A stretch of 57,722 bases of DNA, filler included, from Jimgerdemannia flammicorona (Eukaryota), in assembly GCA_003990765.1 (NCBI GenBank). It is 3 parts of 3 records of this genome, joined end to end, with 100 filler letters (N's around TTAATTAATTAA, not from the genome) between each part and the next. Parts side by side here need not be neighbours in the genome. Positions count along the whole stretch, not along the records: positions 38,552 to 57,722 come from RBNJ01002007.1; 2 more parts are not named here. One strand, written 5' to 3'. A program made the translations under genes and the position numbers. Of this stretch, positions 7,301 through 57,722 are shown piece by piece; the first letter of the stretch is position 1, and each line of letters begins with the position of its first letter. The notes beneath the pieces are model-generated. The model did not search any database. It was not told the origin of the DNA and saw only the letters and a program-made list of their open reading frames with translations.

Positions 7301-7529
7301 TTGCTCCTTCTTGTGTTCTGGTATAACTAGTAGTTTTTCTTTCTTCAGTATTTCTCTGTCAGTTTTGAATTATTTCTATGTTCTGTTGATAATCATTTGT
7401 ATCCATTCTTCCAGATATTGGGGCATCTTTCGCTGTCCCAGATATATAATAATTCCATAGTAGAGCTCCTTATTCATAACTAATTTGTTGGTTGGAAGTA
7501 GTTCAGGGTGTCTATGAGAGGGCATCTGC

Positions 7530-8790: not shown

Positions 8791-9059
8791 TCTACTTCAT
8801 GATAGTAGTGTGGGGTCTTTCCTTTGATATTCTTGAAATCTGTGGCAAGGACATCTTCAAATTCATGGAGTATTTCCTTGAGTTCTTTCTTGAGTGGAAA
8901 TTCATTTCTGATGGTATAGCTGTGCTTGCTTGTGTTTTCCTCCTTCTTATGCTCGAGTTTGGTAATCTTGGTACTAGTGAATACTCCTCTTTCTATAGAT
9001 CCAAATCCTTTCTTTCCTCTTTTTGTTTCCTCCAGCTTCTTAACTTCTATAATCTTTGG

Positions 9060-9368
9060 TTATAGGATCAGAAAGATCAACATTTGCACCAATCAGTCCT
9101 TCTTCTTGACTGGAAATGGGATTGTAGGATTGTGATTCCTAGTAATAAGTAGAATTTCTCTAGTATAGTCTGAATCAATGACTCCTCCTTCAATTGTGAT
9201 TTCACTTCTAGCCAGACTACTTCTTGTCTTGAGAATCCCGACATGATCCTTTGGAATGGTCATCTCCAGTCTAGTTGCGAGTAGGGTGATTGTCTGGGGT
9301 TCCAGTATAGTCTCTTCTACTATAGTAATGTCCATTCTGGCTGTATTTTCTGACTTGTATTCTGGCAA
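9060..9368 (-). pseudogene. dUTPase domain within pol
   Basis: IPKDHVGILKTRSSLA and GGVIDSDYT match trimeric dUTPase motifs 2 and 3. Confidence 0.9.
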
Positions 9369-9779
9369 GACTGTATCAGGGTGAATCTTTCAAATCTTGA
9401 CCTTGATTTCTTCTTCATCATCACTGTCCTCCAGGAGAGCTGGTGGTTCATCATCTTCCTCCTTCTCTTCTTCTCTGGTCTGTTTCTCGAGGGCTTTCTG
9501 TCTTCTTTTCTCATGGATCTTCTTGATTCCGATGGTGTACTGATAGCAATCATTGATATGCTCCATATAGTATATCTTGATCCCATGAGGATAGACTCCT
9601 TGTAGTGCATAGTCTTCTGCAATCTTCTTATACTATTCTTCTTCAGAGTAGTCACCATATAAGCTTCCTCTTACTCACTTTCTTCTTCCTCCATATCAGG
9701 CAGGACTCCTTTGTTAACATTGATGGAAATTCATATCTTCTGTCCCTGATAGGTGATCTGCATCTTCTGAGTATTGAGA

Positions 9780-19178: not shown

Positions 19179-19278
19179 NNNNNNNNNNNNNNNNNNNNNN
19201 NNNNNNNNNNNNNNNNNNNNNNTTAATTAATTAANNNNNNNNNNNNNNNNNNNNNNNNNNNNNNNNNNNNNNNNNNNN
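19179..19278. other. Artificial scaffold gap/linker
   Basis: 100-nt N run with a central TTAATTAATTAA (stops in all six frames). Confidence 0.97.
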
Positions 19279-38451: not shown

Positions 38452-38551
38452 NNNNNNNNNNNNNNNNNNNNNNNNNNNNNNNNNNNNNNNNNNNNTTAAT
38501 TAATTAANNNNNNNNNNNNNNNNNNNNNNNNNNNNNNNNNNNNNNNNNNNN
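38452..38551. other. Artificial scaffold gap/linker
   Basis: 100-nt N run with a central TTAATTAATTAA. Confidence 0.97.
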
Positions 38552-39586
38552 CTCTCCGCAATCACAAGACGTCAGCCTCTATCACCACCTGATATCACAC
38601 CATAGCGCCCTTGACTGTTTATCCTCCTCTACCACATTTTCCGCCCCCCCCCCCCCCCCAATACTCACTTTGATTAAACTTGTAATTATTATTCGCTCGA
38701 CCTATCGTGCTTCATCGTTTCATAACTACCCCGTTGCACACTTACTCTGCGTTTTACTTCCCCCCCTCCCCCTTCCAAATCTCGCACACCCATTCACTTA
38801 ACTCATTCGTGGTTGACCGCTTGTGTTCTGCAATCCAGCCTTGCTCGCACTCACTCTCCGCAATCACAAGACGTCAGCCTCTATCACCACCTGATATCAC
38901 ACCATAGCGCCCTTGACTGTTTATCCTCCTCTACCACATTTTCCGCCCCCCCTCCCCCCATAAACTTTTTGTCAAGAGGAACTCTCCTCCTTCATCACTA
39001 CTGTCACCTGTCACCCATTCCGACGAGAGCTGTCTACAACACAGCCCACCCCACACTTCTCTACCCAACCTTTACCTCGACTGAACGACTTCTCCGTTCA
39101 CCTCTTCTCTACCACGCTCACATATCGAGTGGTTTTCCTTTTCTTTTTTCTTTTTCTTTTTTCTACTCTGCTCATCTGAACAAGACCCCTACTTGTCCCT
39201 CTGTTCGCTTCCCCTTATCACTCCTACCGAGACTCCAAAACCCCCCACTCTGGTTACCTTTATCTGTTACCGCAAGTTCTTTGCGGTCCGAGTACGCACA
39301 TCGTTTCTGTGTTTCGTACACCATTTTTTCGCGCGTAGATCTTCATCCGCCCATCTTACCTTGCCCCCATTCGGGAAATCGACGGTGCTATCTCACATCG
39401 AGCATCGGCCTTGATATTTAATTTCGGAGATTCTTCCTTACGGTCTCTCTTCCTTACCGGTATTACTCGAAGACTTTTGATTCCTTCGTCTTCTTCCTAA
39501 TATCTGCACACCCCCACAGAACCTCGTCAAGCATTCCCCGAGGCTCTCCCATCTATACCATCGACTCAACCATCGGATCGTAAACC

Positions 39587-41875
39587 ATGGCAGCCGCAAC
39601 CTTTGCCACCCCGCCCTCGTCCAATCCCCACCGCAACATCATCCGCATTCCGGTCTCGCTGATCAAGAACACAAGCACAAGCGCCGCAGTAGCCAAACGG
39701 AAAGCCGTCACCGCAGCAGTCAGCCTCGCTAGCGTCTCGACCGCGACGACCACTATGAACGACGTGGCTGCGGCCATCCTACCCGCCACCGGCTATAACT
39801 ACAACTACCGTGCCCCGACCGGCCCGCTCTCCTCCCAGTCGTCCTCCATCGCTGGGAACAACGCCGACTTTGCACAGCATATACCGGCCATCGTACCAAG
39901 GATCAAGCTTATCGTCCGTCCCGCCAATGGCTCGTCCCCCGCCACGGCCTTCATCGCACCATCGCCGCCATCAAAGAGCTCCGCTCTCAAAAAACGGAAA
40001 AGGGACGGAAACAATGCATCCGCTGAGTCGTCGCCTTCGTCCGCTCAGGCCGCTATCAAGACCCTCCCGCCCGTGGTCCCGCTCAAGAAGCGAAAACTCA
40101 ATGATATCCGCCCGCAAGCCTTATCGTTCAGCTCCGTGTCCACATCTCCCCTCATGGGATCGAGCTCGAGTTTCCGCATGAGCACGTCATCGTCGTCGTC
40201 GTCATCATCGTCATCGTCCACGTCCACGTCGCGGACCTCCAGCATGTCAATTGATCTCGCCCCTGGCTCGTCCACGCATCCAATCCGCATCACGTCCTCG
40301 GACGACGAAAACTCCACCTCGCCCACTATCCCGATCTCCGCCGTGTCAATGAATTACCCGGTTGTCCACAGCTCGTCCTCCTCGCCCATTGAGCTGACAA
40401 GCACCGCCGTGTCCCCGCAGATCCAGACCGCGCTCGCGCGTCTCATTCCCAACGCCGAGCAACAGGCCCTCCACGCCTTCACCCCGCAGCAGCTCGAAAA
40501 CCACAAGCACTTGCTTCTCGCCGTGCTCATGCACTGCTCGCGCTTCTCTGTCTCAGGCGAGCTTGAGCCCGAAGAGCGCTACGATCTCGACAAGTTCCTG
40601 GGCAGTGGCGCCAGCGGCCTAGTCCTCCGCGGTACCCGCAAGCGCGACGGCGCCAAAGTGGCCGTCAAGCTCATCGCCGAGTCCTCGTCCTCCACGCACG
40701 CCAAATTCCACCGGGAGCTGTCGACTCTCACGGCCATGAATCACGAAAACGTGCTTCCGTGCTGGGATGCCTTCAGCTGCCCGCCCTCGTGTGTTCCCTC
40801 GCTCAGCGGGGTGGATACCACGTCCCCGGGCACACCCCCGAGTAAGGCCGGCGTCACCTCGCAAAAGAACCTCGTCGTCCACGTGCCTCGTGTCTTCGTC
40901 ATCGTCGCACCCTACATGGATGCCTGCCTCTTCGACCTCATCGATCAGCACAAAAGTGGCACCGGCTCCACCATCTCGTCGGACTCTGCCTCCGTCGGCG
41001 GCCTCCCGCTGGATATTGTTAAGCCCGTTTTCACCCAGCTCGCCCTCGGCCTGCAGTACATGCACGCCCGCGGCTTCGTCCACGGCGACATCAAGGACGA
41101 GAATGCCCTCGTCGAAGTTGTCAACGGCGGCCGCGTCCTCGCCCGCCTATGCGACTTTGGCCATACTCGCTGGGTGCCCCGCGAGAGCAATCCCACCGTC
41201 GTCTGCCCTTCCAAGCTCGTCCTCTGTGATGTTCCAGAATGTCCCTACGCCATCAGCGGCAAGAATGGCGGCTTCCTCGAGACAGACGTGCTCAACCCGC
41301 AGGGGAACCGGAATCACCCCTACGCGCTCTACGGCACAACCGTCATGACCCCACCGGAGATGCACCACAACGTCCGCCTTAAAGCCTGGTTCCGCCAGCA
41401 GCAGCAGCAGCACCAGCTCCAGCAGCAGGCCGCCGGTGAGACAAGCGCCGCGGTCCCCGCCTTGCCATCCGGCGCCACCCCGCAGTACTCCGGCGCCACC
41501 CCGCAGTACTCCGGCTTTGGCGGGTTCGAGGCTGACGTCTGGGCTCTTGGGCTCCTGCTCCACACCATGGTCTTTGGCGAACTGCCCGCTGAATGCTACG
41601 CCCTCGAGTCAGATTACACCACCGGTGTGACAAAGACCCCCAAGGCTGGCAGGCGTGGCAGGCGGAAAGCCGTCGCGGATGGGGCCGAGGATGAAGCCGA
41701 GGAGGCCAAGGCGAAGAAAGCCGGCACGTGTGGCGTCAGAATCGGAGGGAAGGGAAAGAAGGTCGGAGCCGTGGATCGTAGACTGAGAGACCTGCTAAGG
41801 AAGATGCTGGCGAGGGATGCCGAGAAAAGGTTGAGGATGGAAGAAGTACTTGGTCACGCATGGGTTGTGGGTTAA
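39587..41875 (+). CDS. Ser/Thr protein kinase (CAMK-group, PIM/PAS-kinase-like), 762 aa, intronless
   Basis: LGSGASG, VAVK, HGDIKDEN, CDFG, GTTVMTPPE, ADVWALG and EVLGHAW. Long low-complexity Ser-rich N-terminus with basic KKRK motifs. Confidence 0.93.
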   Translation: MAAATFATPPSSNPHRNIIRIPVSLIKNTSTSAAVAKRKAVTAAVSLASVSTATTTMNDVAAAILPATGYNYNYRAPTGPLSSQSSSIAGNNADFAQHIPAIVPRIKLIVRPANGSSPATAFIAPSPPSKSSALKKRKRDGNNASAESSPSSAQAAIKTLPPVVPLKKRKLNDIRPQALSFSSVSTSPLMGSSSSFRMSTSSSSSSSSSSSTSTSRTSSMSIDLAPGSSTHPIRITSSDDENSTSPTIPISAVSMNYPVVHSSSSSPIELTSTAVSPQIQTALARLIPNAEQQALHAFTPQQLENHKHLLLAVLMHCSRFSVSGELEPEERYDLDKFLGSGASGLVLRGTRKRDGAKVAVKLIAESSSSTHAKFHRELSTLTAMNHENVLPCWDAFSCPPSCVPSLSGVDTTSPGTPPSKAGVTSQKNLVVHVPRVFVIVAPYMDACLFDLIDQHKSGTGSTISSDSASVGGLPLDIVKPVFTQLALGLQYMHARGFVHGDIKDENALVEVVNGGRVLARLCDFGHTRWVPRESNPTVVCPSKLVLCDVPECPYAISGKNGGFLETDVLNPQGNRNHPYALYGTTVMTPPEMHHNVRLKAWFRQQQQQHQLQQQAAGETSAAVPALPSGATPQYSGATPQYSGFGGFEADVWALGLLLHTMVFGELPAECYALESDYTTGVTKTPKAGRRGRRKAVADGAEDEAEEAKAKKAGTCGVRIGGKGKKVGAVDRRLRDLLRKMLARDAEKRLRMEEVLGHAWVVG

Positions 41876-42838
41876 TTAATCCCCCGATCCCAATTGTACA
41901 GGCGTTGAACTTTTGAAGACCGGCAGATGCATCTAGACTTTTATTTTCCCCTTTTTTGGGAGGGTTCTTTTGGACTTGGCGCCGTATCGAATCGTTTTTT
42001 TATTTTGCTTTTTACGCGTTGACTTCTCAGTTTGCTCTGGACTCTTAATGCTTGCGGTTTTGCTTTTAATCATAGACGTTTTGCGAAGGTGCTTGTATAC
42101 ACCTGTTTTGTTTATTTTTTTACTTCATATTTGCTTTCGCTTCTTGTTAATCTTGCTGTTCGAGGGGTCGGAGGAGGTAACACCCCTTACTGTATTCTAT
42201 TTCTTTCTTTTGCGCGTTATTTGCTTTGATTTTCCTCATCTGCCTTTTTTTTTATTTTCTTTTATTTTGTATCATTTCACCAATAATTCCTGTCACACCT
42301 CCGTCACCCTGTCGCCTTTCTACCCTCTTCTTGTACATTTCTTCTCTTTCTTCATTATTAAACCCTCCATTGCCTTTTGAGACAGGAATCTCTCTTTTTG
42401 TCTTTTCTTACCCCTAGGTGTCAAGCTTGCTTTTATTTTTCCCGTTTTTCCCTCCTCGCCATTCTGATGCTTTATTTGCTTTGACACCTTTACCTTCTTG
42501 TACACATATTTATGTGTCGCTGTAATTATGCGCAGGTAGACGGTGCCATGCCGTCCCCTCTGTCGCATTTTGTTATTTTTTTTTTTTTGTTATTGACTAT
42601 ATGCCCCTTTTACTTTCAATTTCCTTGCGCCTAGTACCCGCTCTTTTTGTAAAGCTTGCAATCATAGAAATCTTTGCGCCTTTTGTCTTCATCACAACGT
42701 CATTTTCTGTCATTTCTTTATATCTTTCACCTCTTGTTTTTCTTTCACAGGTGCGCCTGCCTGTGGTTTTTCCAATCCTCGAATCACCTTTTTGTTTTCC
42801 TGGCTCCTGGCCTAGTCGACGTCTCTCTCTATGATCCA

Positions 42839-42841
<3 letters not shown>

Positions 42842-42884
<43 letters not shown>
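42842..42884 (+). repeat. (CT)n microsatellite
   Basis: Seen directly in the sequence. Confidence 0.95.
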
Positions 42885-42887
<3 letters not shown>

Positions 42888-43879
42888 AATCATCCTTCTC
42901 TTCTCTACGCCGACTAGATTATTAGACTTTTGTGGCACTGGATCGCACCCCACCTTTTCATCTTCCTTCTCTCCCTTAACACGTTCACACCACACCTCCC
43001 AAATAGACTTGAGGCAAGGCGGATAGGTATGATGTGTGTACCACATAGATGCCCGGGTAGCGCGATGTATGCTGTATAAAAGTGGATTTCTTTTACTTCG
43101 CAAGAATTGGGAGACATGCAAGGGTTGTATAAGTGATGATGGGGGTGTGCGTATCCGATTTCGGCGGCCTGGTCGAAGTCATAGCGCGCGCGCGCTGAAC
43201 AGCTTGCTCGTCGAAGCAACCGCTATCGGCATGGAAGCTGGAGGTGGCGTTTGTATGACGCTGGTTAAACACAAGTCTCGGATGTGCAGTCTATCAACGA
43301 ACACCGAAGGCGTCTCGAATCTCACGGCTGCATGATAGATTCTTGTGAATTAGAAGCGATTTATTTTTAAGGATTTGCGCATTTTCAAAAATGTGTTGGC
43401 CGTGCATAACAATTGATCTTCGCCTTTTCACTACTATACTGTTCAATGATGATGGCTAGCGGTCCTTCTTGGCTATTGGTGGCCAATGTACACGTCTTAC
43501 CGAGTATTGCTCTATGTTCTTTTTGTACTGCCTTGTCCTACTTTGTGCTCTTCTTCTTTTCATATTGTATTGCCTTCTTCCTTTTCGCCCTGAGATACTA
43601 TAGATATCCTCTCCCAAATGACTCCATCAAGCATACATTGCCGCTGGCACAGCGGCGTCCATCCATCTCTACAATGTCAATCCCGAGCCGCCTCCCCACA
43701 TACAGAAACATCCGGGTCTGCAAGGACGTTATTGTCTCCTGCGATAACCAAGGAGGCCTCAATCCTGTCTGAGTCTGACTCCAACCATCCGTTTGGACAT
43801 AAAACCACGGAATGGAAAGTACCGATAAAAAATTGCTTCTACACTCCGAACAAGTTTGTGGCTGACTACTATCACTTGT

Positions 43880-44420
43880 GCTACGGCAAGTCGTTTTTGG
43901 AGAAACATCTGAGGATAGATAGGGCGACTAATCTCAAGGTAAGAAAACGCTGCGGTATCGTGTTTCATGTCTGGGACGCGCGTACGGATCGGCTCAGGAA
44001 AAAAAGGTGGGTGATGGCCTTCCTTTCCCAAAATGGCAATCTGGCGACCGGCGACCGGAATGATATTCCCTTTTTGACACCTGCGCCTATCCAGAGCCAC
44101 GACCGCAAGTGTTCCGTCTTTGTTGGCAACTTCGCCTTTGATGCGCAGGAAGAAGGACTCTGGGCCTTCTTCAAAAACTGTGGTGAGATCGGGAATGTAC
44201 GAATCGTGCGAGACTCGAAGACGAATCTAGGCTTATGTGCAGTTTGTGGTATGTAAAGAAAATGGTATCGCGTGCATGCTTTGTGAGAGTGAGGGAGGCG
44301 ATGCTCCATTGAGGAGTTTGAAGAATTCTCTTTATTTTCTGTGTAAATTTGTTTATTTTTGAATGAGCACATAAAACTTGGCAAGCCAAGACGAATCGCA
44401 TTTGCCAGTGTCGGAATGAA
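43880..44420 (+). pseudogene. RRM protein fragment, Nop12/RBM34-like
   Basis: [11 protein letters not shown], then a GTAAG intron, then [46 protein letters not shown]. The RNP1 (KGFAYV-type) motif is broken and a stop follows. Confidence 0.7.
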
Positions 44421-45060
44421 ATCCTATCCCACTAAGACCAAAGAATCTATTGAATAACTCTACCCAAAGAAAACCTATTACAGGACCAGATTCAATGTCC
44501 TCACATTATGCTAAAGGTCTTCGTCACCCACCCTTACCTCTTGGGCGAGAGGTGCCAGAAGCACCTGTGATATTTTGAATCATCCATTCCAAGTTTTCTT
44601 TGAGAGAAAAATCTCAAAGTTTGATTCTCACTGCTGCGGAATGACCCACAACACAGCCAGCTGGATCCCGCGCCTCTCCGCTCAAATAAGTCTCGTCATT
44701 GGCCAAAATGTATCGTTGGGAGAATACCGAAACGCCGGCAACTCCTACATAATCATCAGCAAAGCCAAGAAAACCAACCCTGGGGTGCAAACCGACGAGG
44801 CAAGGTCTCATATAGAGTCAATTTACACGCTTTTATATACGTGTTTTTTCGTGACGACTGATGACGTCACCATTGCCAGGATTATAAGAATTTTTGAATT
44901 AGCTACCCCGCTAGGAATTCTATCGGATCAATAAACATACACATGTACATATCACGATTGTTCCGATCCGGGAAGTCTCGATCGGGTCTGTGCTGTAAGA
45001 ACACGGATTTCGCGACCTGCTCCATCACGACCCAAGACCCTGCTCTACTCGATTTATTAT

Positions 45061-45575
45061 TTAGTTATTAGAATAGGATCAAAGAATTTTGTATAGCATT
45101 TGAGCGAATAAACCTCATTCAATTTCTCAGTGAAAAATCCACTATAATTCCTACGATGATAGTGTCGTAGATGGGCACGGCGGCCTGGCCATACTGGGGG
45201 AAGGTGTGAACCCGTGGCGAGATGGGCTACGGTTTCGAGCAACGTGACAATTGCCAAGGTGGGTTTCGCCATTGGAATTGATGATGGCAAAGGGGAGCGG
45301 GTGAAAGTAGGTTGACTGACAGGTTTTCTTTGGATCGTCCGTCAGATGCGCCCCGGTCGGGGGATCTATCAGATTAATAAATATGCACATGTCCATATTT
45401 ACATATTTACAGGGATTCTTTGTCACATTTAGAGGGGCACTTGCCATGTGACCAGTGGCCAATTACCGGCGTGACTTGTTATTGCTTAGCTATTAGAATA
45501 GAACTAAAGAAATTTGTGTATTATACATGGTATTTGAGCAAATAAACCTCAGTCAATTTCTCAGTGAAAAATTCA
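45061..45575 (+). repeat. Pair of ~80-90 bp direct repeats (45061-45140 and 45486-45575)
   Basis: tattagaata...atttgagc.aataaacctca.tcaatttctcagtgaaaaat occurs in both copies. Confidence 0.8.
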
Positions 45576-47099
45576 TTACATTGCCTCAAGAAAGCAGATC
45601 AAGGTTTGCTCTGCAGCCTATGTTTCCTCGGTAGTCCACGTTCCCTCGACAGTCCACGTTCCCACGGTGTCACATCTATTCTATCAATTGATGAAAATCA
45701 CACGTAGTGGCAAAGCCCATTCTTTCCCACTCTGGCTACATACCGCGATCCGATGGTGCCCGCGACGAGGTGGCGGAGGAGAGAGATGACGCATGGGTTC
45801 ATCATGTAGCGCGCAGAGGTTTCGACGAAGATTGGTTCGTAGGGCGGGGTTCCAGATGCAAACAGATCTTGGCTATCTCCAACCTCGATCCCAAAATTAT
45901 CACTGCTGTCTCGTCATCGTATTTCAGAAAAGGCCGTCTTCAGCTATTGCTTCTATCGCCAACAAAGTTGCGCGCATGGGAGTTTCCGCAGCATCCAGAT
46001 ACGCAGCCCAACGTGGCGGAAGAGGCGGCCGGCGGAGAGGAGGTCATCGCGATTAATTCCAAGGGTGGAGATGGAGTCCGAAGCGACAAGCGAGGACATG
46101 AGGAGCGGTGACGAAGACAGGGGGATTTAGCGGTCGTTGGTGATGATGAAGAGCGTGAAGATGGATAGGTCTGGCAAGAATGTGCAATGGTAATGTTCGA
46201 GCATGTCGAAAGTGAACAGGACCCTGAATCTGAGTTGGTTGGATAGATTCAGCGTCGTGATGTTGTGCAAGTATGAAGTCCAGTGGCATAGGATTGTATG
46301 TTCAGAGTTCTTCGTATCCCCACCAATAGCTACTCACTTGGCTCACTAGGCCACAAATATCTTCACCTTCTCCGTCTACCCTTCCCTTCGCAATTCATAT
46401 TGTCCAACCCTAAAGAAATCGTAACATGTATTTTTATTTTGCATGGCTGTGTGTAGGTGAGTGTGGAAGTTGGCGCCTGCGCTGCTTATCAACATCCTAT
46501 CGTAACTTGTCAACTGAGCCGCGGCGCGCATTGTCCCTGCACGCGGACGAACTCGAACGAGATTCTTGTGCGCCAGACAGACGCGGGTTACGTGATCGCA
46601 CTGGGACACCAGGAAGCGCAGGTATCTGTCCAGCGAACGCAAGTTGAACTCGGTCGGGCCCAACTTCCCGTCCACTCCCAGCTGTGCTTGTGGTGATTCA
46701 CCGAGGTCTTGGCGGACGCGAATTATAGTTGAAGGACATATAGGGGAGAAGGATTCGAAATTTTAGGGGGCTTAATAATGTTTCCGGCATGGTAAGAGTG
46801 GATGCTGCTGCAGTAACCGAGAAATGGTTCGGATAAATTCCCATGGGCATCGGAATGAGTTGTCTCAAAGTAAACCGCGCAGAATATTATATCGGTGGCC
46901 TCGATTTTTGCATAATCTATACGGTTTCTCCCTATCATATATTTCTTCTCTCTTGTTGGTTCAAAATCACTCACGCAGATGCACACTCATCCCTTGAACG
47001 AATTCTGCCAATAAATTCCTCTTCTACAATTCACCTCTGCAATTTATCCCTCACCCCTCCTGCCTCTACCTAATCTCCCTTCCTCTCGACTCAGTTTCC

Positions 47100-47828
47100 T
47101 TAAACGATGTACTCCCATTCCACGTCACTTAGGTTGATCCCTATATTAGGCGTGAACCCGAACCCGTACCCACTCCACTCCGGTTCGATGGTCCCGCCGC
47201 AGACCCGGTCCTCGTCTACCACGATTCGCATGCGGCCGCGCACCATCTCCACGCGCGCGTTATACAGGGTCACGTTGGCTTGCGGCTGGAGGATATCGAT
47301 CTGGTCTGATGTAGTGGGTTCGGGCGAGGGGCGACCAAGGAGAAGGCGGGACGGGGGGAGAGGCGGGCGAGATGAGTGATACGTTCACAGTGGACGATGT
47401 CGTGAAACATCCTCGTTATTGAAAGCCTAATAGTATAAACCATTTCAGACAAGCTTACCGTTCACCGCCTTCAAGACGATCGTTGCCGTGTCATCGGCAA
47501 CCAGGTATTCCGCCACACGTATGACCTTGCCGCCTGCGTTAAGCGAAACAGCCGAAACTATCAGCAAGCAGCAAGCTAGAGCAATAAGGGCTTCTGACAT
47601 CCTACCCAGTGATGTGCCCATCCCACTCACTCTCGTGTTGGCTCTGCGCCAAGACAAGCTGCGTCACGACCTGGACGCACAGGTCGGCTTGGTGTTTGGA
47701 GGGACGAAGCTGGGCTATCTTTGTGTCTGGAGGAGAGCCGAAGGGTAGGATGACGGGTTTGAGAAACTATCCATTCGTTGGCGACACGGCAAGCTCAAAG
47801 AAGCTCACGTACAGGTTGTTCCGGGCAT
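47100..47828 (-). CDS. Small OB-fold nucleic-acid-binding protein (At4g28440-like), 4 exons, 130 aa
   Basis: Exons 47828-47813, 47726-47631, 47533-47459 and 47305-47100 splice in frame with GT-AG to give MPGTTYTKIAQLRP...RVAEYLVADDTATIVLKAVNDQIDILQPQANVTLYNARVEMVRGRMRIVVD...NLSDVEWEYIV. Confidence 0.88.
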
Positions 47829-48578
47829 GTTGAGAGCTGAAATGTAAAGAGTGCCTCAAATCATGTGACTCTGATGGTGGTCGTCATTAACCTGAACAGG
47901 GAAGTGATCCGTCACAGCTTACACCTCTTGTTTGTGAATTAAAGTTAATGTTTCAGTATCCACACGGTACAAGGTGTTAGTGGAGCACATTTTGGAGAGG
48001 TATGTGTGAGGGGTGACACTGTTTTTGCTCAAAATCGTAGCACACCGTACTTTGTGCGGTAGAGTGCGTCCAATCGGACGAGCCGACTATCGCGAGGCAG
48101 TGTCCCCCCCCACCAAAGGTCATTGCTACAACGATTACTCCCTACCAACGACGCTGCCTCGGCGACAACCCACATGTTGATGGTCCGCCTCGACATCCTG
48201 TGCGGCACGGCACGGTGGACGTGAGCTGCGCCTTGGTTTCATTGAAAATACCAATGACATCACTCAACGATAAAAGTGAAGCCACCTTTATGCATCCCCA
48301 TCGGGTAGTTTTTTCTTAGGCGGGATTAGGGGTGGACCCCCGTGATCTTTATTGGGTGGAATGCGGCTAGAGTGCTCTTTGAGGGTTGTGAATTTTGTAA
48401 TGGTCTGTACGATTGGGCCGATAGGTCCTTTTTATAATTTCCAGATACAAACGCTCTTTATCTTTCATTCGTAACACTAATAAGCTGAAAAACGTACTCA
48501 TAATTCTAGTCTCGCGGTCCTGTACAAATATTTCCGCTATTATTTAAATGTTCGTAAGTCCCATACCTCCACCTCCGA

Positions 48579-49817
48579 TTACGACCCAGCCACGAGCGGT
48601 ACCATTACCATCTCCAGCAGTTCGCTCACCCACCTGTCGCGCATGCCGACCCAACCCTCGTCGCAAACGACGGTATACCTCTCGAGGCTGACGAGTGCGC
48701 CGGCGAGGTGGCGCTCTGTGCGTGCGTTAACGACAAGCCCCAACCAGGTCTCACGCTCCTCGACCCATGTCTGGGCAACAGCGGTCCATAGCAGGGCCAT
48801 CTCGAGTTCGACGAGCTGGTAAGCAAACTGCTCGATGGTGGTCGGCGACCGTGACCGCCACACGCCCCGCGTGGCCGGCCACCGCGGCGCTTTATACCGC
48901 GGTGGGATGTGCTCCTCGTACGATAGCAAGTGCGACATCAACGACCGGATCGTTTGTGCGATTGAGTGCTCGTACGACGGCGGTGTATCGTAGCCCGGCG
49001 GTGCATCACCGGCTGAGGGCGAAATTATGTGCGCGAGTTGCACGAGGGGGGAGTTGGCTGGTCGTGTAGGGGTGGAAAGGTTTGAGGAAGGGGGTGTTGG
49101 AGGGGTGCTGGTTGCGTCGGTGATGTCTGGTGCGGGGGTCGATGGTGGGGAAGGTAGTGTGCCTTGAATGGAGGAGGTGACGATGGCAGGGTCGGCGCTA
49201 GAGGACACCTTCTCGGCATATTCCTCCGTGAACCGTTGATCGTCCATGGGACTGCCAGGTGAGCGCGGTGGCTCGTGCGGCGCCGTCACGTGGTCTCCGG
49301 GGGCGTCGGGGTACGGGCCCAGGACGTCGAGCTCGGCAGGTTCGTCGTCGTCCTCGTCCTCCGCATGGCGAGCCATCTCATGTCCGTCGATGGATTGCGT
49401 AGATGGGATGCTCTGCGAGGAGCCAGGGTTGAATACCACGTAGTGAACGGGGCCGTTGGAGAATTGTTCCTCGGTTGGAAGGATCCGGTCGAGGCGGCGG
49501 AGAATCTCGCAAAACTTGTTCTCGAGCGAGTCAAGGCGCTCGGCAAATACGTCCCCTGGCATGGCTTCCGTAGACGGTCGGTATGCCTCCCATGTTCTGT
49601 CGGCGTCCTCTGCCTGCACGGGGACACGTAAGGGTAAGAGCGGGATGCCAGACGTGAGATCTACGGCGACGGGGACGGGCCTGCCGTCTGACAGGAGGGC
49701 GGTAACGTGTGGGAAGAAAGCATGAATATCCGGAAATAGGATAAATGGCTCTGTGGCAACGCGGCGCACGGGGATTTCGCGGATTTCATTTTGGAAAGAT
49801 ACTCTCTGGAAGGACAT
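48579..49817 (-). CDS. Hypothetical protein, 412 aa, intronless; duplicated Trp-rich helical C-terminal motif
   Basis: Long ORF with coding-like GC3 and a Pro/Ser/Thr-rich linker. The C-terminus has two W-x3-R-x2-W...A-x2-L-x2-LE units. Confidence 0.85.
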   Translation of the reverse strand: MSFQRVSFQNEIREIPVRRVATEPFILFPDIHAFFPHVTALLSDGRPVPVAVDLTSGIPLLPLRVPVQAEDADRTWEAYRPSTEAMPGDVFAERLDSLENKFCEILRRLDRILPTEEQFSNGPVHYVVFNPGSSQSIPSTQSIDGHEMARHAEDEDDDEPAELDVLGPYPDAPGDHVTAPHEPPRSPGSPMDDQRFTEEYAEKVSSSADPAIVTSSIQGTLPSPPSTPAPDITDATSTPPTPPSSNLSTPTRPANSPLVQLAHIISPSAGDAPPGYDTPPSYEHSIAQTIRSLMSHLLSYEEHIPPRYKAPRWPATRGVWRSRSPTTIEQFAYQLVELEMALLWTAVAQTWVEERETWLGLVVNARTERHLAGALVSLERYTVVCDEGWVGMRDRWVSELLEMVMVPLVAGS

Positions 49818-51881
49818 GTCGAAGCAAAGGCTGTTCTATCGATAAACGCCACGGACAATCAACCCAGGAATGCGTGCTTGCCATCACGTGGATCCGCCGA
49901 TCTGCAGATGGCTTAGCAACAGCCAAAAATCTCCGATGCCGCAGCATCCTTCCTCCCCGAAATACCTTCGCTACCTTGACTACCTTCGCTATCTTCACCA
50001 TTTTCGACGCATCCAAATTGGTTACATGTTCATAAGATTTTCGTACCATTCCATCGTGGCCTCATTAATTCCGAATTCGCAGACATAATTGTGTCCCTCG
50101 GCATACCCCACGATCGCAAGTATATCAATACATGACTTACTCTGTGGTATGCAGTGAATTGTTGTGGATGAATCGCACGTAAATATCGAATGCTTATTGA
50201 AGTTTTCAGGCATAAAGTTTTGAATGTCCTCGGAAACAGATTATCAAATCTTGCATTCGCTTCCAATAACCAAAGATATGCAAAAATATATAGGGCGGAG
50301 ATGGGTCGTGCATTGAGCAGTACTATGAACCAGGAAATTAATGTACTTGCAATTCAAGGCAATCATCCTACCGACAATAGCCCCATAATTCCTGTACATC
50401 TCACAGTGCCGCTCCCGTTCATAACTTCACGGTTCCCAGCCAAAAATTGATACGCTGTGGGGCCTAAGTACACGTAGAGCACACTGTCGAAAGGGAGAGC
50501 CTCCGAAGTATAGGCACTCCGTTGTTCCAAGCACTCAAAGTCAAATGAGAACTTATTAGCGAAGTGTGATTCAAATGCATTCCGAGGAATTCTTACATGA
50601 GCAAGTAATCTTGGGTGCATTAACAGTATTTTACGAATAGAAGCAACATATGCAAGTGCAATAAAAGTGGAGAGACTTAATACGTGAAATCTACTAGAAG
50701 CTGAAGACTGGAATAAACCACCCCTAACCAATGACAAAGAAAGAAAGAAGAAAAAAGATCTATCGCAAAACAAATGAGTTCTAACGAAGCCTCCTCGAAC
50801 AGGGCTTGTACTGCGAGATAAGTGAGGGCTTTTGGTGTCGTTAGTGCCAGTCTTTGAACTGGTTGGTACTTTGAACTTTTTATTTTAATAAAAGGCTACG
50901 TCTAAGGTGTCTTCATAAGATACTGATCCGCAATTTTTTAAATTACAGTAATACGACAGTTATTTTGGAAAAAAAATCAGACCGAAAATACCACAAATCA
51001 TATTTAGTTATTCATCACCAGAAATTGTTACCAAAACTGTTGCCAAGGGGGCAAAGAATTGACCCCTGTAATAAACCGAGATCAGCGTTCCGATCGAGCG
51101 TCTCCTGCTGCCAAAGCGGTAGCAAAGATCAAGAGGCTACGTAATTTAATTTGCACATACCCATTTCGGCGCTTCTAATTGAGGGATCCCGGATGGCAGG
51201 GATAGTTTATATAACACCAAGAGCCAGTCGAACACACAAATAATTGTCGAATATTGGGTATTAAGTATTGAGAACAAACATCTGAGTTCTCGCCCTTATC
51301 GATTTTTCACGTGATGTTTGGCGGTTCCGGATTCCGAAATCGAACCCTGTGTCGCGATATGACGTAAAACGCCAAGCCGAATAGTGTCGTAACGTAATTA
51401 TATATGTCCAGGAAGCCACGCTACCATATACTGTCCAAACCATCATTCGTTTAATATCTGTTGGTATTTTTTATATAAGTTTTGGTGATACATTAGTTAT
51501 TTATTAGGCTTATTTTCATTTTATTTTATTTTTTTAAATAAAAAAAAAAATTACATCTGTTATATTAAAGCACTGATAGTTGATATATAACTTATCATTT
51601 ATCAACTAGCTCTTATGTTCACTCTCAATTAATATAAAAAACTAGAGTTTACATATAGTTATATACAATATGCAGCTCTTTAATAATAGTTTCTTTAACT
51701 AACATGATCCAGTTCAAGATCTTGATATAGCATGAACCTAATCATCAAGTTCTCAGCATCATCATCAGGTGCTCCCATATGAGTCTCCTATGACCCTTTG
51801 AATTGTGTGACAGGGTTTGGAATGATATCGTGCTTGATTATTTCGTATCTCAGATGTCAGAATTAGAGTGGTTTGACCCGC

Positions 51882-51938
<57 letters not shown>

Positions 51939-52166
51939 AGGTCATCAAGATGAGAAAACACAAAGCACAACCTCATCAAGCACAGTGATTGGGTTTCTTC
52001 TCGCCATTACGAAACATCCGTACCCGAAGAATTTAAGACATGTTTCGTTCATCCCTTACACATCTAATACACTGCCCCCCAAGAACCGGCCAACTTAATT
52101 TTAAAAGATCAAACGCTCGAGCTCAACCTATTTGTCAATTGGCTCGGATTTGTCATGTCATTTCTC

Positions 52167-53657
52167 CTAATTTACAGTAACAATAATGTTCACAGTCATG
52201 TGGATAAGCATGTCGAGTTTAGACTTCAAGCCCATGAGGCGAATAAGCTTATAGGTACACATCGGAATAACTATGCACATCGCCCCAGTCACGGCACCAA
52301 AAAACCACCACAAAATCACCCACGTTATCTCGAACCTGCCACCGGCCGGTTTGGGCGTCGCACCCATGATGAAGTAAAAAAACCTATGAATCCGTGCCAA
52401 AAACCCCATAGTCACAAGACCAAAATGCATCCACAAAACCGTCCACATTATCCCGGCATAAACGATAATGGAGTCGATCGAGATGCCTTCCTTCGTCATT
52501 GGTTGCTCGTGTGAACCCGCGATGGCCTTGTACCATGTGTCTTTGCTCGTTGTTATAGTTTGGATAGGTTGGCGCTCTTCTTCCTGTATCGTCTCGGTGT
52601 GTACTGTCGAAGTTAGAGCCATGGGGACGGGAGGGGTGCCAGGTTGGCAGTGCGTAGCTCCTACAGTTAGATGGGTTACTCCGAACACGGAGGTGCCACG
52701 CACGTGCTGGCTTTTGATCTCGACGGTCGGCAAAAGCTGCTTCGTTGGAATAGGCACGGGCGCAGCCCGCATATATTCCATTTCCCACTCCACTGTCCGC
52801 ACAGCCTCCATCATCGCCCGGTCCCCATCCTCTAATGTCAGGATCTCGACCCCACCGTCCCTCCGGTTCATGCAAATGCACGCCAGCACTGCCACAGCCT
52901 CAGGGTACTTGCGCGCGAAATGCTCCCGGTACCGCTTCGCCTGCTCCCGTACCTTTCTGCGCTTCTTGGACCTGTTCAGGCGCGCCGTCTGGCCTTTGGT
53001 GTCGAAGTCCAAGTACTTCACCTCCACAACCACAAACACCCCGGTCCGAGATGCGAGCACAAGATCCCCTCGGCCCATGTACATTTGTCCGGGGGTGACA
53101 TCCCACTCGACGCTGCGCAAAAAGGGGAACCCGGGTAGTAAAATTGGTTGATCCAGCATCAGACGCTGCATGACCACTGTCTCATTTAAGGAGGGTCCCT
53201 GGAGCGAAGCCAGCCGCTCCCGCTGCTTCCGGTCGCACTCAACAAGGTCCACATTCGAGTTGTCGAGCTTGGCAGACCAACGGTACGCGATTGTCAGTAT
53301 GGTGCGCGTGATCCGTCGGGCGTCCTCAGGATTCCAGCGGAACCGAAAGGTGGCCGGCCGAGACTCAACGATCAGAAGCTCGCAGCCAGCTTCGTGGCAG
53401 AAGCCGCGGATCGTCGCTCGAAAGACATCCGGCTCGTCACCGTACAAGTGGTCGGTCTCGGGCATCCCAAAATCCGAGGCAGGCGAGGAGAAGGTGAAGT
53501 AGTGGTCCGTGGTCGCGAGGCCAAGGCGACAGAGAGCGAGGATCAGTTCGCATTCGAAAGGGTGGGGCGGCAGGTCGGCGAGGTTGGGGTTTAACAGCTG
53601 AACGCAGATGGTGCATTTGCACGTCATGATGATCGTTGCATCGGAAAGGGATGTCAT
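52167..53657 (-). CDS. PD-(D/E)XK nuclease-fold protein with C-terminal hydrophobic helices (paralog 1, 496 aa)
   Basis: NETVVM...LLPGFPFL...EW...GRGDLV...VVEVKY...EQAKRY, followed by hydrophobic segments in the last ~110 aa. Confidence 0.85.
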   Translation of the reverse strand: MTSLSDATIIMTCKCTICVQLLNPNLADLPPHPFECELILALCRLGLATTDHYFTFSSPASDFGMPETDHLYGDEPDVFRATIRGFCHEAGCELLIVESRPATFRFRWNPEDARRITRTILTIAYRWSAKLDNSNVDLVECDRKQRERLASLQGPSLNETVVMQRLMLDQPILLPGFPFLRSVEWDVTPGQMYMGRGDLVLASRTGVFVVVEVKYLDFDTKGQTARLNRSKKRRKVREQAKRYREHFARKYPEAVAVLACICMNRRDGGVEILTLEDGDRAMMEAVRTVEWEMEYMRAAPVPIPTKQLLPTVEIKSQHVRGTSVFGVTHLTVGATHCQPGTPPVPMALTSTVHTETIQEEERQPIQTITTSKDTWYKAIAGSHEQPMTKEGISIDSIIVYAGIMWTVLWMHFGLVTMGFLARIHRFFYFIMGATPKPAGGRFEITWVILWWFFGAVTGAMCIVIPMCTYKLIRLMGLKSKLDMLIHMTVNIIVTVN

Positions 53658-54068
53658 TTTGGTGGTTCTGTTAGATGACGGGGTAGGGGATTATAAAGGA
53701 ACAGGCTCCGCACGGAGGATAGGGGCGACAATCGACGCGCGACGGGAGTCCATGGGATCCCCTTGGCAGCTGATTGGGGACAAACATAAATTATCATTGA
53801 GTGTGTACCACCAAATATTCTTTGATTTGCGCAGTAGCGTATATACTCAGAATAAAACAAAATCCCTTTCCAGCGGGTCACTCGCTCACGTTATAATTAC
53901 AAAACCCCCATTGCCGGTATTGTTTCTCCGACTGCTGTTGAAGGGGCGCAGGCTGAAGATTGTTTCATTTTTGATGATTTTGATTTTAATCAAAGAATCT
54001 CATTATTTTCACTGCAGTAAGTGTCGCATTTTGGTATGTAGCTTTCTACCAAACCTTTTGATACTCCC

Positions 54069-54962
54069 ATGAACCTTTTACGTGCTGTGTCAAAATACGT
54101 CGCCCACTATATCGCATCGACCGACCTCCACAAGCACTACATCTCATCGGCCGACATCCACAAGCACTACGTCGCATTGGCCGACCTCCACAAGCACTCC
54201 ATCGTGCCATCCTTATGTCGAGATCACCTCAAATCGTTACGCGACGGTATCCCCAGGTTTTCCTTTCTCAGCCTTCATAATACATCGCACGTGAAAAACG
54301 ACGGATACGAAACTTCCTCAATGACGGTTCTGGAACAGTACTCCAAGGAGACCCTGTCAGCATACAAATCCAAAATACTGGTCGAGCACTGTTTCGAATG
54401 GTCAAAGGAATCCGCTCCAGAAGTCCTGCAAAAGGTCTTGCAACTCGCTCATAAACATACCACTTCGAAGCCAAACATCGTCAATACGTTCGAGCTTCGC
54501 GACAAGACCATGCGCAATCACCTCGTAAGTATGAAGTCCTCGGCGGGGACAGAGAAGAAGCTTGAAGCAGAACTCATGGAGCGTCTAGTCAAAGAGCAGC
54601 CGAAACTCCTCCCGGGGTTCCCTTACCTCCACGCCGTGGAATGGAAATCGAGCACCGGAATCGATGGCCAGGGCGACTTGGTGTTCGCTTCGGTGGGCGG
54701 GATCTTTGCCGTTGTGGAGACGAAGTATATAACTAACAAGCGGTCGAATAAAGAAAAAGTGGTACTTGAACAAGCAAAGAAGTACCGCGATATTTTCGAG
54801 AAGGACAATCCCGAGGCGCTGCTAGTGGTTGCGTGCGCGTGCGTGAACGGGGAGGATGGTAACCTCACAATTACGCCGATTGACGATAACAACGATATGA
54901 TCTTGAAGGCTGTGGGAACGGTGCGGGGCGCTGCCAAATCGAATAATAAAAAGGGAAAGTAA
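54069..54962 (+). CDS. PD-(D/E)XK nuclease-fold protein (paralog 2, 297 aa)
   Basis: LEAELM...LLPGFPYL...EW...GQGDLV...VVETKY...EQAKKY. Confidence 0.85.
   Translation: MNLLRAVSKYVAHYIASTDLHKHYISSADIHKHYVALADLHKHSIVPSLCRDHLKSLRDGIPRFSFLSLHNTSHVKNDGYETSSMTVLEQYSKETLSAYKSKILVEHCFEWSKESAPEVLQKVLQLAHKHTTSKPNIVNTFELRDKTMRNHLVSMKSSAGTEKKLEAELMERLVKEQPKLLPGFPYLHAVEWKSSTGIDGQGDLVFASVGGIFAVVETKYITNKRSNKEKVVLEQAKKYRDIFEKDNPEALLVVACACVNGEDGNLTITPIDDNNDMILKAVGTVRGAAKSNNKKGK
54105..54200 (+). repeat. 30-bp coding tandem repeat x3 (HYxxxxDxHK)
   Basis: cactatatcgcatcgaccgacctccacaag followed by two variant copies. Confidence 0.9.
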
Positions 54963-55287
54963 TAGGTATCAACGATTGAGCATTGTTTTGTCATTGAGCC
55001 CATGTATCAAAACTTGATTGAGTTAGGGTAGTGTTGTGCAAAATAATCCTTTTGTGAACGTCTATATCATCTATCTCTCATATTACAATGATCCAATACA
55101 AACTTCCACTTTTCAGGCATCTTGGATCCATCTCGCACTAATGACCGAAACCGAACCTCCTGAAATTAGAACCCCATGCGAGAATAAAAGGACTATATCA
55201 ATCAATGCAAATTTTAAGACTTAAAGGACTATATCGTTCAATCGTAAATTTAAGATCTATGGTGGCAAGTCGTCTTTTCTCCTCTAG

Positions 55288-55300
55288 GATATATAAAGGG
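55288..55300 (+). promoter_or_regulatory. Putative TATA box of paralog 3
   Basis: GATATATAAAGGG ~80 nt upstream of ATG 55375. Confidence 0.4.
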
Positions 55301-55374
55301 GTTGCGTCGGCCTCACCGAGCTCAATAAATACCAGTAAGTATTATCCAAGCTTAACGACCCGCGCCTCTTCGTC

Positions 55375-56150
55375 ATGAATAACGTACGCCCTACTTTGAG
55401 TGCACTCGTGCTATCGCTTTGCCGCTCTCATTTGAAAAGCATGCGCATGGTCTTGCGACGTTTTCCGATTTCTCGCCGTCGATGATTAAACAACAGCATC
55501 TCGCGACCTACCCGTGGTACGCCAACGAAACTTTAACAAAATACGAGCGCGAGGAGATCGAAACCGCCATTCAGCATCGATTCGAATGGCCTAAAGAGTC
55601 ATTTCCAATCGTCCTCCCTCGCATTTTACAGTTAGCTAATAACTTCCACGCCACGATACTCACAACCGCGACTCACCTCGCACTCCGCGATCTGGAACAA
55701 CGCCGTCGGTTGGCCAGCCTGCCCTTGTCGCGAGGAATGGAACCTGAGGCCGAGCTTATGCGCCGGCTGGTCCGCGAGTAACCAGACCTCCTCCCTGGAT
55801 TCTCCTATCTCCATTCCGTTGAGTGGAAAGTCGCCACCGAAAATGGTCAGGGTGATCTGGTGTTCGCGTCGCCCGGTGTGATCTTTGTGGTAGTTGAGAC
55901 GAAGTATTTAAACGGAAAGGGGGATGCTAAGAAATGGACAGTTGTGTTCCGCCAGACAAAGAGGTACAAGGAATCATTTGAACAGGAAAACCCGGGGGCT
56001 GTGGCGGTGGTCGGGTGTGCGTGTGTGAATGCCACGGATGGCCGTCCAGAGATCCATCCGGCCGAGAACATGGATGGTGCGATCTTGAAGGGTGTGGGAA
56101 TGATAGGATTGAAATCCAACTGGTATTCCTGGTTTTTTACTGGAAAGTAA
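55375..56150 (+). pseudogene. PD-(D/E)XK nuclease-fold paralog 3, frameshift plus premature stop
   Basis: SLCRSHLKS matches paralog 2 SLCRDHLKS, then a 1-nt frameshift occurs near 55447. TAA at 55779-55781 sits where the paralogs have Gln. Downstream LLPGFSYL...GQGDLV...VVETKY...RQTKRY is intact. Confidence 0.85.
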
Positions 56151-56713
56151 AAACAAATAACGTGAAGTTGGACATGGTGTGTGCACACAGTGTATGGTTG
56201 TATTGATAGAGTCGAAATGATAACGGTTATATATATATATAAACGACATCGTCTCAATATTTAGCTCCCATTGTATATGGTGATTTCCATGAGACGATCC
56301 CGCTCACTTTAATATATATATATATAAATGGCCAGTTTGAGTTTACCGAGTATGGGCATATAATTTGTGGAAAGCATCAATAAGTAATTACGATCCTTAC
56401 CTGATTTGCTAGGCAAAGGCAAGAATGACTCACGAGTCGCATACCGTATATACTCAGTTCACCGAGCAGCCAAAGTCGCATGGGCCGACGATCGCGCATG
56501 CGCACTATTATTTGTCAGTTTCTCCTAGGGAAGGGTTGATATCAAGGTCCAATATCAAGGTTCGAATATGATGCCTCTCCCCTGCCATCCTTGTACCTTT
56601 TTTTTTTCTTTTTTTTTTGGTTTGTGAGACGTGACTGCCTAAACCCACAATAAATGCTCGAGACGCGTCTCGCCAGTTGTTTCCCACGCTTCGTACTCGG
56701 ATACTGCAGAACC

Positions 56714-57722
56714 ATGAACCACAACGACCACATCGATATCACAATCATTGGCGGCGGTCTCGCCGGCTTGAACTGCGCCTATGCGTTGCATAAGCGTTTA
56801 CCGAACAAAAATATCACTGTGCTGGAGAGGGGCGACCGCGTTATGGGGCTTACAAGTTCTGCAAGCACGGGTAGGTAGGGTTTTTGAAGGGATCGCAAAT
56901 TTAAATATGGGAGGGAGTGGAGAATGGGGTGGAAACTTTTGCACAGATTTTTTTTTTGTCTGAAGCCGTCGGTGAACACTTCAGGGTCGAACTCACTCCG
57001 GGAAAAAGAACCATATCTTACTTTCTTCTCATTCTCGCTCTTTACGAATAGGTGGCTTCCGTAACTTCTTCCCCAATTCCCGCGCCATGACCAACCTCTC
57101 CAACCGCTCCATCGACCTCCTCCTCGAGTACGCTCGTGCTTCCGCCGGCACAGGCAATGAGTTCATGATGAACCGTTGTGGATACGTCTTCCTCTCCGCG
57201 CAGCCTGAACAGATGGAGCGCTATAAGAAACAAGCCCAGGCGGCGCACGAGTTCGGTTCTGGTACATGATGCCTTCCTTTCCCGTATGGTCAAAAGTGAC
57301 AAGATCCCTGACGCTAGTCCCTTCAATTCTTCGTTGGCACTCAGGCGCGATCCGATACAACGGCCACCCGTACAACCCCGAAAAACCGGCTGCGGTTTTC
57401 AGCTCCGTTGGCTTTGACTTCGAGCTCTACAAGACGCACAAGGACGGCTTGGACTTGATCGATGATCCCGCGGTCATCCGGAAGCTGGTGCCCGACTCCG
57501 TCACCAAGGACGTGCGCGTCATGTTCCACGTTAGGAAAGCGGGATACCTTGACGTGGAGGGATTAGGTACGTGCCATCGAGAGGAACTAATGAGGTGAAG
57601 ATGTGTATGGTGGGAGTCGATAAATATGTGTGCGTACGGCTCGAGAGCCGATGTTTCATTGAAAGGTGGGTGCCAGAACTCTGTTTTACAACCTCGCTAC
57701 CCCCCCCCCCCCCCCCCCCCCC
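56714..57722 (+). CDS. FAD-dependent oxidoreductase (DAO / sarcosine-oxidase-like), multi-exon, runs off the window
   Basis: DITIIGGGLAGLNCAYAL (GxGxxG), ITVLERG, TSSASTG|GFRNFF and CGYVFL; GT-AG introns. Confidence 0.88.

Follow-up and report, generated by a model that had tools for sequence, protein, structure and literature searches.

A NucS-like nuclease family of Jimgerdemannia flammicorona and its relatives: a candidate single-gene defence enzyme

Introduction

Among described nucleases of the PD-(D/E)XK superfamily, NucS/EndoMS carries the catalytic residues E127, D160, E174, K176, Q187 and Y191 (PMC7343888), which correspond to the E-D-ExK-QxxxY residues of the family treated here. 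Shedu (SduA) is an EndoMS-related PD-(D/E)XK nuclease encoded by a single gene, either bare or under N-terminal regulatory or sensor domains that include the winged helix (bioRxiv 2023.08.10.552793). Domains of the restriction endonuclease (REase) fold are also common as the C-termini of Crinkler proteins (PMC5289972, PMC6131194). The family of this study is represented by three adjacent paralogs, ORF1 (minus strand), ORF2 and ORF3 (both plus strand; ORF, open reading frame), at positions 52167-56150 of a 57,722-nucleotide stretch of DNA from Jimgerdemannia flammicorona (assembly GCA_003990765.1), hereafter the window.

Few restriction-fold nucleases are known to figure in eukaryotic immunity, and the immunity of early-diverging fungi is poorly charted. 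The reading developed below, for which I would put the chances at about even, is that the family is an old, NucS-like, single-gene nuclease of intracellular defence or conflict, which by analogy would resemble Shedu in its working, would be gated by its N-terminal domain, and in some paralogs would be tethered to membranes facing the cytosol. Should this be true, it would add a defence enzyme that is conserved across domains of life and has an unusual form anchored to membranes; otherwise the family still counts as an uncatalogued group of nucleases present in mycorrhizal fungi. The prokaryotic gene of 140-150 amino acids (aa) and the fungal forms are open to a direct test of a defence role. 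No description of the family was found in the open literature, a scope to which subscription journals, supplements and Zhang et al. 2016 do not belong and which does not establish absence from print; the last of these reportedly defines the CR-REase families and may cover this domain.

Results

The three paralogs are real: ORF1 occupies 52167-53657 on the minus strand (496 aa), ORF2 54069-54962 on the plus strand (297 aa), and ORF3, an ORF2-like pseudogene in the assembly, 55375-56150 on the plus strand. This agrees with the sequence-only reading of the locus that preceded the analysis, which had described three neighbouring ORFs with the first pair divergent and ~410 bp apart; the intergenic spacer (53658-54068), common to the divergent pair, measures 411 bp and is a possible two-way promoter. 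The shared motifs named in that reading were likewise recovered, all three ORFs carrying LLPGF, VEW, GxGDLV, VVE(V/T)KY and QxxxY. At the sequence level, the likeness of the three is far above chance: ORF1 and ORF2 are 38% identical over 189 aa (BLASTP, E 2e-36), and the ORF2 domain as a query against the genome found ORF3 at E 5.9e-36 and ORF1 at E 7.6e-25.

Each paralog keeps all six residues of the E-D-ExK-QxxxY set. The nuclease domain of ORF1 (residues 157-298; 52764-53189, minus strand) carries E159, D198, E212, K214, Q239 and Y243, the counterparts in ORF2 are E166, D203, E217, K219, Q235 and Y239, and the catalytic motifs of ORF3 are intact as well. Across 146 aligned relatives conservation is 90% or higher for D198, E212, K214, Q239 and Y243, and E159 matches the consensus. 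A model built with AlphaFold from 146 sequences reached a predicted local distance difference test (pLDDT) score above 90 over the nuclease domain, and its core (over residues 143-292) matched NucS 2vld best (Z 7.8, root-mean-square deviation (rmsd) 2.8, 92 residues aligned), with UPF0102 3fov (Z 7.6, rmsd 3.6, 97 aligned), Hjc (Z 6.6), XisH (Z 6.2), HsdR and McrC as further top matches. Z values up to 7.8 are middling taken alone, and a sequence search of PDB gave one irrelevant match only; the motif evidence for a PD-(D/E)XK enzyme is stronger than the fold-match scores. The catalytic set and the modelled alpha-beta-beta-beta-alpha-beta core place the family in the PD-(D/E)XK superfamily, with metal-dependent nucleic acid cleavage as its predicted activity. 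The earlier assignment to this superfamily with a NucS-type signature is upheld by the conserved set and by NucS as the top fold match, while the structural comparison with NucS and Mrr that it had proposed came out in part: the modelled fold is NucS-like, no Mrr profile matched, and Foldseek returned nothing at E <=0.001 in PDB or the viral library. A homodimer prediction for ORF1 residues 11-300, made without an alignment, scored 0.00 and speaks neither for nor against a dimer.

A single-protein homologue search with ORF2 gave no match at E <=0.001, so profile searches were needed: a search with a profile built from five genome copies brought 371 representatives at E <=0.001 out of 1.84 billion, and the best 150 of these 371 divide into short and long forms. 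Short forms are mostly 130-180 aa long, and long forms consist of an N-terminal alpha/beta domain and the nuclease, often followed by a C-terminal hydrophobic helix. Among the rows with a name, short forms belong to cyanobacteria, Myxococcota, some proteobacterial bins and two Promethearchaeota (Asgard archaea), and on the eukaryotic side to Stygiella (three tandem domains), Nonionella and Cladocopium; the named long-form carriers, namely Jimgerdemannia, Endogone, seven Glomeromycota genera and Klebsormidium, are all eukaryotic, many rows being without a name. Two or three tandem nuclease domains were seen in P0008 (Stygiella), P0005, P0057 and P0109, the ExK of the first domain being altered in P0008 and P0005. 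A metagenome scan yielded three short loci among 277 candidates, with uninformative context; three queries found no viral relatives in IMG/VR, and one cyanobacterial-type query found no match in plasmid and phage records.

In a quick tree, unrooted and without bootstrap and made from 188 domains, 70 rows (all named long forms among them) separated from 118 rows (all named prokaryotes among them) with a Shimodaira-Hasegawa-like approximate likelihood ratio test (SH-aLRT) support of 96. The seven genome copies form an Endogonales clade with another Jimgerdemannia protein, an Endogone protein and one unnamed row (SH-aLRT 99; 94/98 in a second tree), and within it the Endogone protein is joined by ORF2 and ORF3 (99/100), apart from ORF1. 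By these sequence groupings the family has a long history in Endogonales, and in the cluster two old subfamilies probably sit side by side. Local duplication, as put forward in the sequence-only reading, does not take the form of a single local triplication, since ORF2 and ORF3 pair with Endogone and not with ORF1, though a tree forced to unite the three paralogs was borderline in the approximately unbiased test (p-AU 0.051). Horizontal acquisition, if meant as a recent event, finds no support in the single Endogonales clade within a long-form group whose named members are all eukaryotic, or in the GC content at third codon positions, which is not foreign and is close to or a little lower than that of two neighbours (ORF1 0.68, ORF2 0.64, ORF3 0.60; neighbours 0.70 and 0.77). 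An ancient transfer and inheritance from archaea are indistinguishable in the unrooted tree.

The fold is a known one; the family, as judged by profile matches, is uncatalogued in the four libraries scanned (Pfam, NCBIfam, PADLOC and PHROG), which contain no fitting model for its prokaryotic members. Among 49 short members, Pfam gave weak PD-(D/E)XK-type matches alone (best E 4.7e-5), NCBIfam gave weak matches to YraN (best E 0.00023), and PADLOC gave nine single matches; the best match to UPF0102 had E 0.0017, and PHROGs gave 1 match among 25 proteins. Mrr_cat and Mrr_N had no Pfam match in the 49 short members (E <=0.1) or in 45 long forms (E <=0.05). The NucS model NF003270 did not fit either (2/49 short members, best E 0.04), with no NucS Pfam match in the 45 long forms, and the Shedu domain SduA_C/DUF4263 (PF14082) was matched by 1/49 short members at E 0.076 and by 0/45 long forms. 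NERD (PF08378, gathering score 22.1) was matched at E <=0.05 in 11/45 long forms and scored 24.4 bits with the ORF3 fragment, 16.0 with ORF1 and 15.8 with ORF2, the ORF3 fragment alone passing the Pfam cut-off.

Set beside NucS/EndoMS (Pyrococcus abyssi 2vld; Thermococcus 5gke), the family shares the catalytic-domain fold, the RecB-type E-D-ExK-QxxxY set and the same 14-residue D-to-E spacing, but it has a longer basic helix before QxxxY, another N-terminal region, a patchy distribution, a predicted membrane anchor in many eukaryotic copies, and no fit to the NucS family model. The likeness to Shedu lies in the single-gene layout, bare or with an N-terminal domain (layout only), in the correspondence of the family D, E, K, Q and Y to Shedu motifs II-IV, and in Shedu being a lead in an Atlas search at 0.86; the family differs in matching PF14082 poorly, in its core of ~140 aa and in its eukaryotic and membrane-anchored forms, the word 'transmembrane' occurring 0 times in the main text of the Shedu preprint (bioRxiv 2023.08.10.552793). 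The family would be like Shedu in working, by analogy, yet it is not Shedu. With YraN/UPF0102, NERD, XisH and Hjc it has in common the minimal PD-(D/E)XK fold and weak hidden Markov model matches, whereas its signature EW-x-V-x-PG-x4-GxGDLVF sets it apart, all matches being weak bar that of the ORF3 fragment to NERD. The CR-REase proteins of the Crinkler-RHS class are similar in that they are eukaryotic, join an N-terminal domain to an REase and have prokaryotic ancestry; the present family has no ubiquitin-like LxLFLAK header and no nucleoside triphosphatase, and has predicted tail anchors instead. The header motifs LxLFLA, LxLWK(V/I) and H(V/I)(L/I)VxxP occurred in 0/184 proteins within the first 200 residues, and no Crinkler Pfam match was found in a scan of ORF1-3 or in the 45 long forms; the Crinkler link suggested in the sequence-only reading finds no header motif to lean on.

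That reading had overlooked the common N-terminal domain (N-domain) and the C-terminal membrane anchor, both predicted features, of which the N-domain appears as an addition in eukaryotic long forms. In ORF1 it spans residues 11-131 (53265-53627, minus strand), begins with CxCxxC...HP and has a weak winged-helix likeness; the model of residues 11-152 is a small alpha/beta domain with pLDDT 85.6. A fold search with the N-domain alone gave weak winged-helix matches (best Z 5.5) and listed no NucS, Mrr or Crinkler chains, which does not exclude them, and Atlas gave no usable match. A likeness to the gasdermin C-terminal domain was seen at first: the whole model matched 5b5r (Z 6.9, rmsd 3.3, 103 aligned), and this match faded when the domain was folded alone. 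Three gasdermin chains then scored Z 4.7-5.0, level with many winged-helix chains, so that the gasdermin scores equal background and the N-domain was left without assignment. A clear N-domain is common to five genome copies (ORF1 and four others), three of which begin with CxCxxC, a motif present in 11/184 proteins; the N-domain of ORF2 is divergent and lacks it. By hhalign, the Endogonales N-domain profile matched Glomeromycota-type and unnamed relatives at 97.6% and a Klebsormidium-containing set weakly, at 76.6%, all profiles having been cut from one joint alignment.

Applying a Kyte-Doolittle value of >=1.6 over 19 residues after the nuclease domain, a C-terminal hydrophobic helix was found in 27/70 long-group proteins vs 0/113 short-group proteins, and in 19 of those 27 the best helix lies within 10 residues of the end. 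ORF1 continues from its nuclease through a disordered linker to a predicted transmembrane hairpin (52236-52478, minus strand) made of two membrane helices, residues 394-430 and 442-474, with hydropathy values of 1.81 and 2.07 and helical in the model. L005, L006 and L007, which are genome copies outside the window, also have a hydrophobic helix; ORF2, ORF3 and the outside copy L004 do not. Tail-anchor topology as such is well established.

The genome holds at least seven copies, four genome searches having led to the same seven places, which is a lower bound. Each of the four copies outside the window is one open frame, 369-429 codons long, and is alone on another contig; identity among the nuclease domains of the genome copies is 28-56%, and the flanking DNA of the seven has nothing in common. 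The cluster, L005 and L007 are placed between ordinary host genes, and transposon-like relics lie within several kb of L004 and L006. L006 and L007 have lost the catalytic D, E and K, and across the family these three residues are intact in 56/70 long-group vs 113/118 short-group domains (p 0.0009), one or more being lost in 14/70 and 5/118, respectively. ORF3 starts with an ATG at 55375, its first codons resembling the ORF2 N-domain, and has two lesions in the assembly: the frame shifts by one base near 55448, and a TAA stands in frame at 55779-55781, directly before LLPGF. The sequence-only reading had counted one dead copy, and its proposed birth-and-death turnover fits the seven copies, two catalytic losses and one pseudogene.

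Sequencing contigs from two runs (X1 and X2) of two studies cover part of the window. Neither run is recorded as RNA, yet the contigs behave like RNA: canonical introns of both flanking genes are missing from them, and the bins 50692-52255 have no cover. They cover ORF1 in part (X1, 52691-53174; X2, 52714-53767 in pieces) and ORF2 in part (X1, 54517-54854; X2, one short contig at 54552-54702), with no joint inside either gene, which answers the RNA-seq check proposed earlier for parts of ORF1 and ORF2 in both runs. The earlier contrast between intronless ORFs and intron-rich neighbours stands as regards the flanking genes, whose introns the RNA contigs skip; intronlessness is not special here, since a kinase frame of 763 aa and the 412-aa ORF at 48579-49817 run uninterrupted on the same contig. 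At 55448, the site of the ORF3 frameshift, an X1 contig of depth 3 has one extra base, which may be another ORF3 allele or an error; the interval 55775-56165, with the TAA, lies outside RNA contig cover, which says nothing on expression. ORF2 and its X1 RNA allele differ by 10 replacement and 1 silent changes among the sites listed, and a neighbouring gene differs from X2 by 3 replacement and 6 silent changes (10/11 vs 3/9, Fisher p 0.017).

Prokaryotic members were collected from 51 genome loci, of which 49 were parsed and two weak matches left out. They are solitary, with no fixed partner among the 49 loci and none that returns from lineage to lineage except a helicase-like cluster in 7, and their presence is patchy, with 12/53 genomes of one cyanobacterial genus carrying the gene, many of these genomes being incomplete. 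A neighbour scan covered 145 of 270 selected neighbours at 48 loci, mostly two genes per side and with the centre offset by some kb at a few loci; the controls were 120 ORFs on 32 stretches picked arbitrarily from the same set of genomes. Pfam labels for defence, toxin-antitoxin or mobile functions were found on 29/145 neighbour ORFs vs 5/120 control ORFs; counted by locus, which is the fairer figure, 17/48 had such a neighbour vs 4/32 controls (p 0.037), a modest enrichment. Some copies lie beside integrases and transposases, and some hold one housekeeping context across genomes. Leptolyngbya sp. PCC 7375 has four copies (L013, L017, L028 and L052), three of them accompanied by one and the same small divergent gene and by further common ORFs that recur at L023 and L033, which suggests that the copies of this strain ride a repeated mobile cassette.

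Discussion

A solitary, patchy prokaryotic gene beside conflict genes, together with a fast-diverging fungal family with both dead and broken copies, fits a single-gene defence nuclease. The conflict or defence role proposed in the sequence-only reading is accordingly kept as the leading guess, its prokaryotic relatives being patchy in occurrence and lying next to defence and mobile genes somewhat more often than controls. In the working model, the N-domain, which weakly resembles a winged helix and often has a presumed metal site of the type CxCxxC, would bind foreign nucleic acid or restrain the enzyme until triggered, the basic helix between ExK and QxxxY would assist substrate binding, and a metal-dependent site would cut the nucleic acid, DNA or RNA. 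Anchored paralogs such as ORF1 may sit on the endoplasmic reticulum or organelle membranes with the active site in the cytosol, near nucleic acid of viruses or endobacteria or RNA of the cell itself; soluble paralogs (ORF2, ORF3) may serve the cytosol or nucleus, and catalytically dead ones could be decoys or regulators. A tail anchor with a cytosolic active site would point to cytosolic nucleic acid of viral, endobacterial or cellular origin as the target, possibly RNA. A bolder version, which I consider possible but doubtful, holds that bacteria, Asgard archaea and scattered eukaryotes have in common an undescribed immune nuclease: in prokaryotes a bare 140-aa anti-phage enzyme, it was given a nucleic-acid-sensing N-domain and a tail anchor by early eukaryotes, and became a membrane-tethered, cytosol-facing nuclease of the restriction fold against viruses or endobacteria, with dead paralogs as decoys.

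Several observations weigh against a defence role. No defence or mobile label was found among the neighbours scanned at 31/48 prokaryotic loci, and several loci lie amid housekeeping genes (aconitase, fabF, glutamate synthase); moreover, the neighbour labels are the author's judgement, the control contigs were chosen long enough to cut, and related loci are non-independent. No PADLOC model fits, the best single match having E 9.8e-5 in 1/49 short members, and the N-domain is without a clear fold match. Seven copies make a small family for a fungal immune gene. The replacement-rich ORF2 pattern (10/11) is indistinguishable from neutral (p 0.14), and the allele comparison spans two different runs, with a further 29 difference rows beyond those listed.

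Two other functions deserve weight. That the cluster is a selfish toxin/antidote or nonself-recognition module, in which a killer nuclease paralog is checked by its divergent neighbour or a dead paralog, would suit the head-to-head ORF1 and ORF2, the dead L006 and L007, the possibly different ORF3 allele in RNA and the replacement-rich ORF2 allele; I find it unlikely, as ORF1 and ORF2 are both catalytically intact by sequence, four other copies stand single on other contigs, and prokaryotic members have no fixed partner. A housekeeping nuclease, acting in repair of branched or mismatched DNA as NucS does or in RNA or DNA turnover at organelle surfaces, is an improbable alternative too: patchy presence (12/53), rapid divergence and frequent catalytic loss speak against it, the NucS family model does not fit and a membrane anchor suits nuclear repair poorly, even though NucS is the best fold match, transcripts occur in both runs, the long form is old and spans Endogonales, Glomeromycota and Klebsormidium, and some prokaryotic copies keep a constant housekeeping context across genomes.

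The remaining explanations concern delivery and origin. The genes could be transposon-borne nucleases or neutral cargo of mobile elements, in line with the repeat-rich genome, the transposon-like relics near L004 and L006 and the integrases and transposases by some prokaryotic copies, but this is very improbable given low copy number, seven copies without common flanking DNA, the cluster, L005 and L007 among ordinary host genes, and no plasmid or phage record match to one cyanobacterial-type query. A Crinkler-type effector delivered into plant or microbial cells has little to commend it: the outline of N-domain plus REase is similar and REases are common at Crinkler C-termini (PMC5289972, PMC6131194), whereas header motifs number 0/184, Crinkler Pfam matches are absent from 45 long forms, and tail anchors would keep the protein in its own cell. 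Least credible is the idea that the genes came from bacteria by a horizontal transfer of recent date, then duplicated locally and have little function, to which absent introns, bacterial relatives of ~35-40% identity in the domain and one pseudogene might point; the Endogonales clade (99; 94/98) lies inside the 70-row long-form group, apart from named prokaryotic rows (SH-aLRT 96), its N-domain is common to Glomeromycota-type proteins, and its base composition is not foreign.

Other features of the window and of the genome copies

The window is made of three separate stretches with N/spacer joints, and the gene cluster lies on the third (38552-57722, G000:C2007). The N runs around TTAATTAATTAA, at 19179-19278 and 38452-38551, flank the middle stretch; the first (C2005) and third (C2007) stretches are different contigs, so genes across the N runs are not neighbours. 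A 30-bp tandem repeat of 3.3 copies (54105-54204, plus strand) gives the N-terminus of ORF2 its His-rich D(L/I)HKH units, and a 36-bp tandem duplication of 1.9 copies lies upstream of ORF3 at 55187-55255.

Elsewhere in the genome, an uninterrupted RNA ligase frame (L116:4799-5875, plus strand; PF09414, E 1e-20) converges on the dead paralog at the L007 locus (G000:C5220) from ~1.4 kb off, with a protoglobin gene upstream; this is a single anecdote toward an RNA substrate. The L005 copy (G000:C3908) lies between two similar inverted PB1-domain genes (L113:411-1937, plus strand, and 5737-6951, minus strand), one of which ends in what I take to be a UBA-like tail, like that of p62/NBR1-type autophagy receptors.

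Contigs of both runs cover the 412-aa intronless gene (48579-49817, minus strand), which has no Pfam match; its N-terminus presumably resembles a short header that many proteins of Mucoromycota bear, and its C-terminus a set of WHIM-like helices. At ~6400-9700 (minus strand) lies what I take to be a decayed pol like that of long terminal repeat retrotransposons, with integrase- and dUTPase-like frames, and a copy related to the pol-like region was found at L115:6813-9597. An X1 contig that aligns at 50360-50690 differs there at many sites and carries an insertion of 27 bases, which suggests a transcribed repeat with copies elsewhere.

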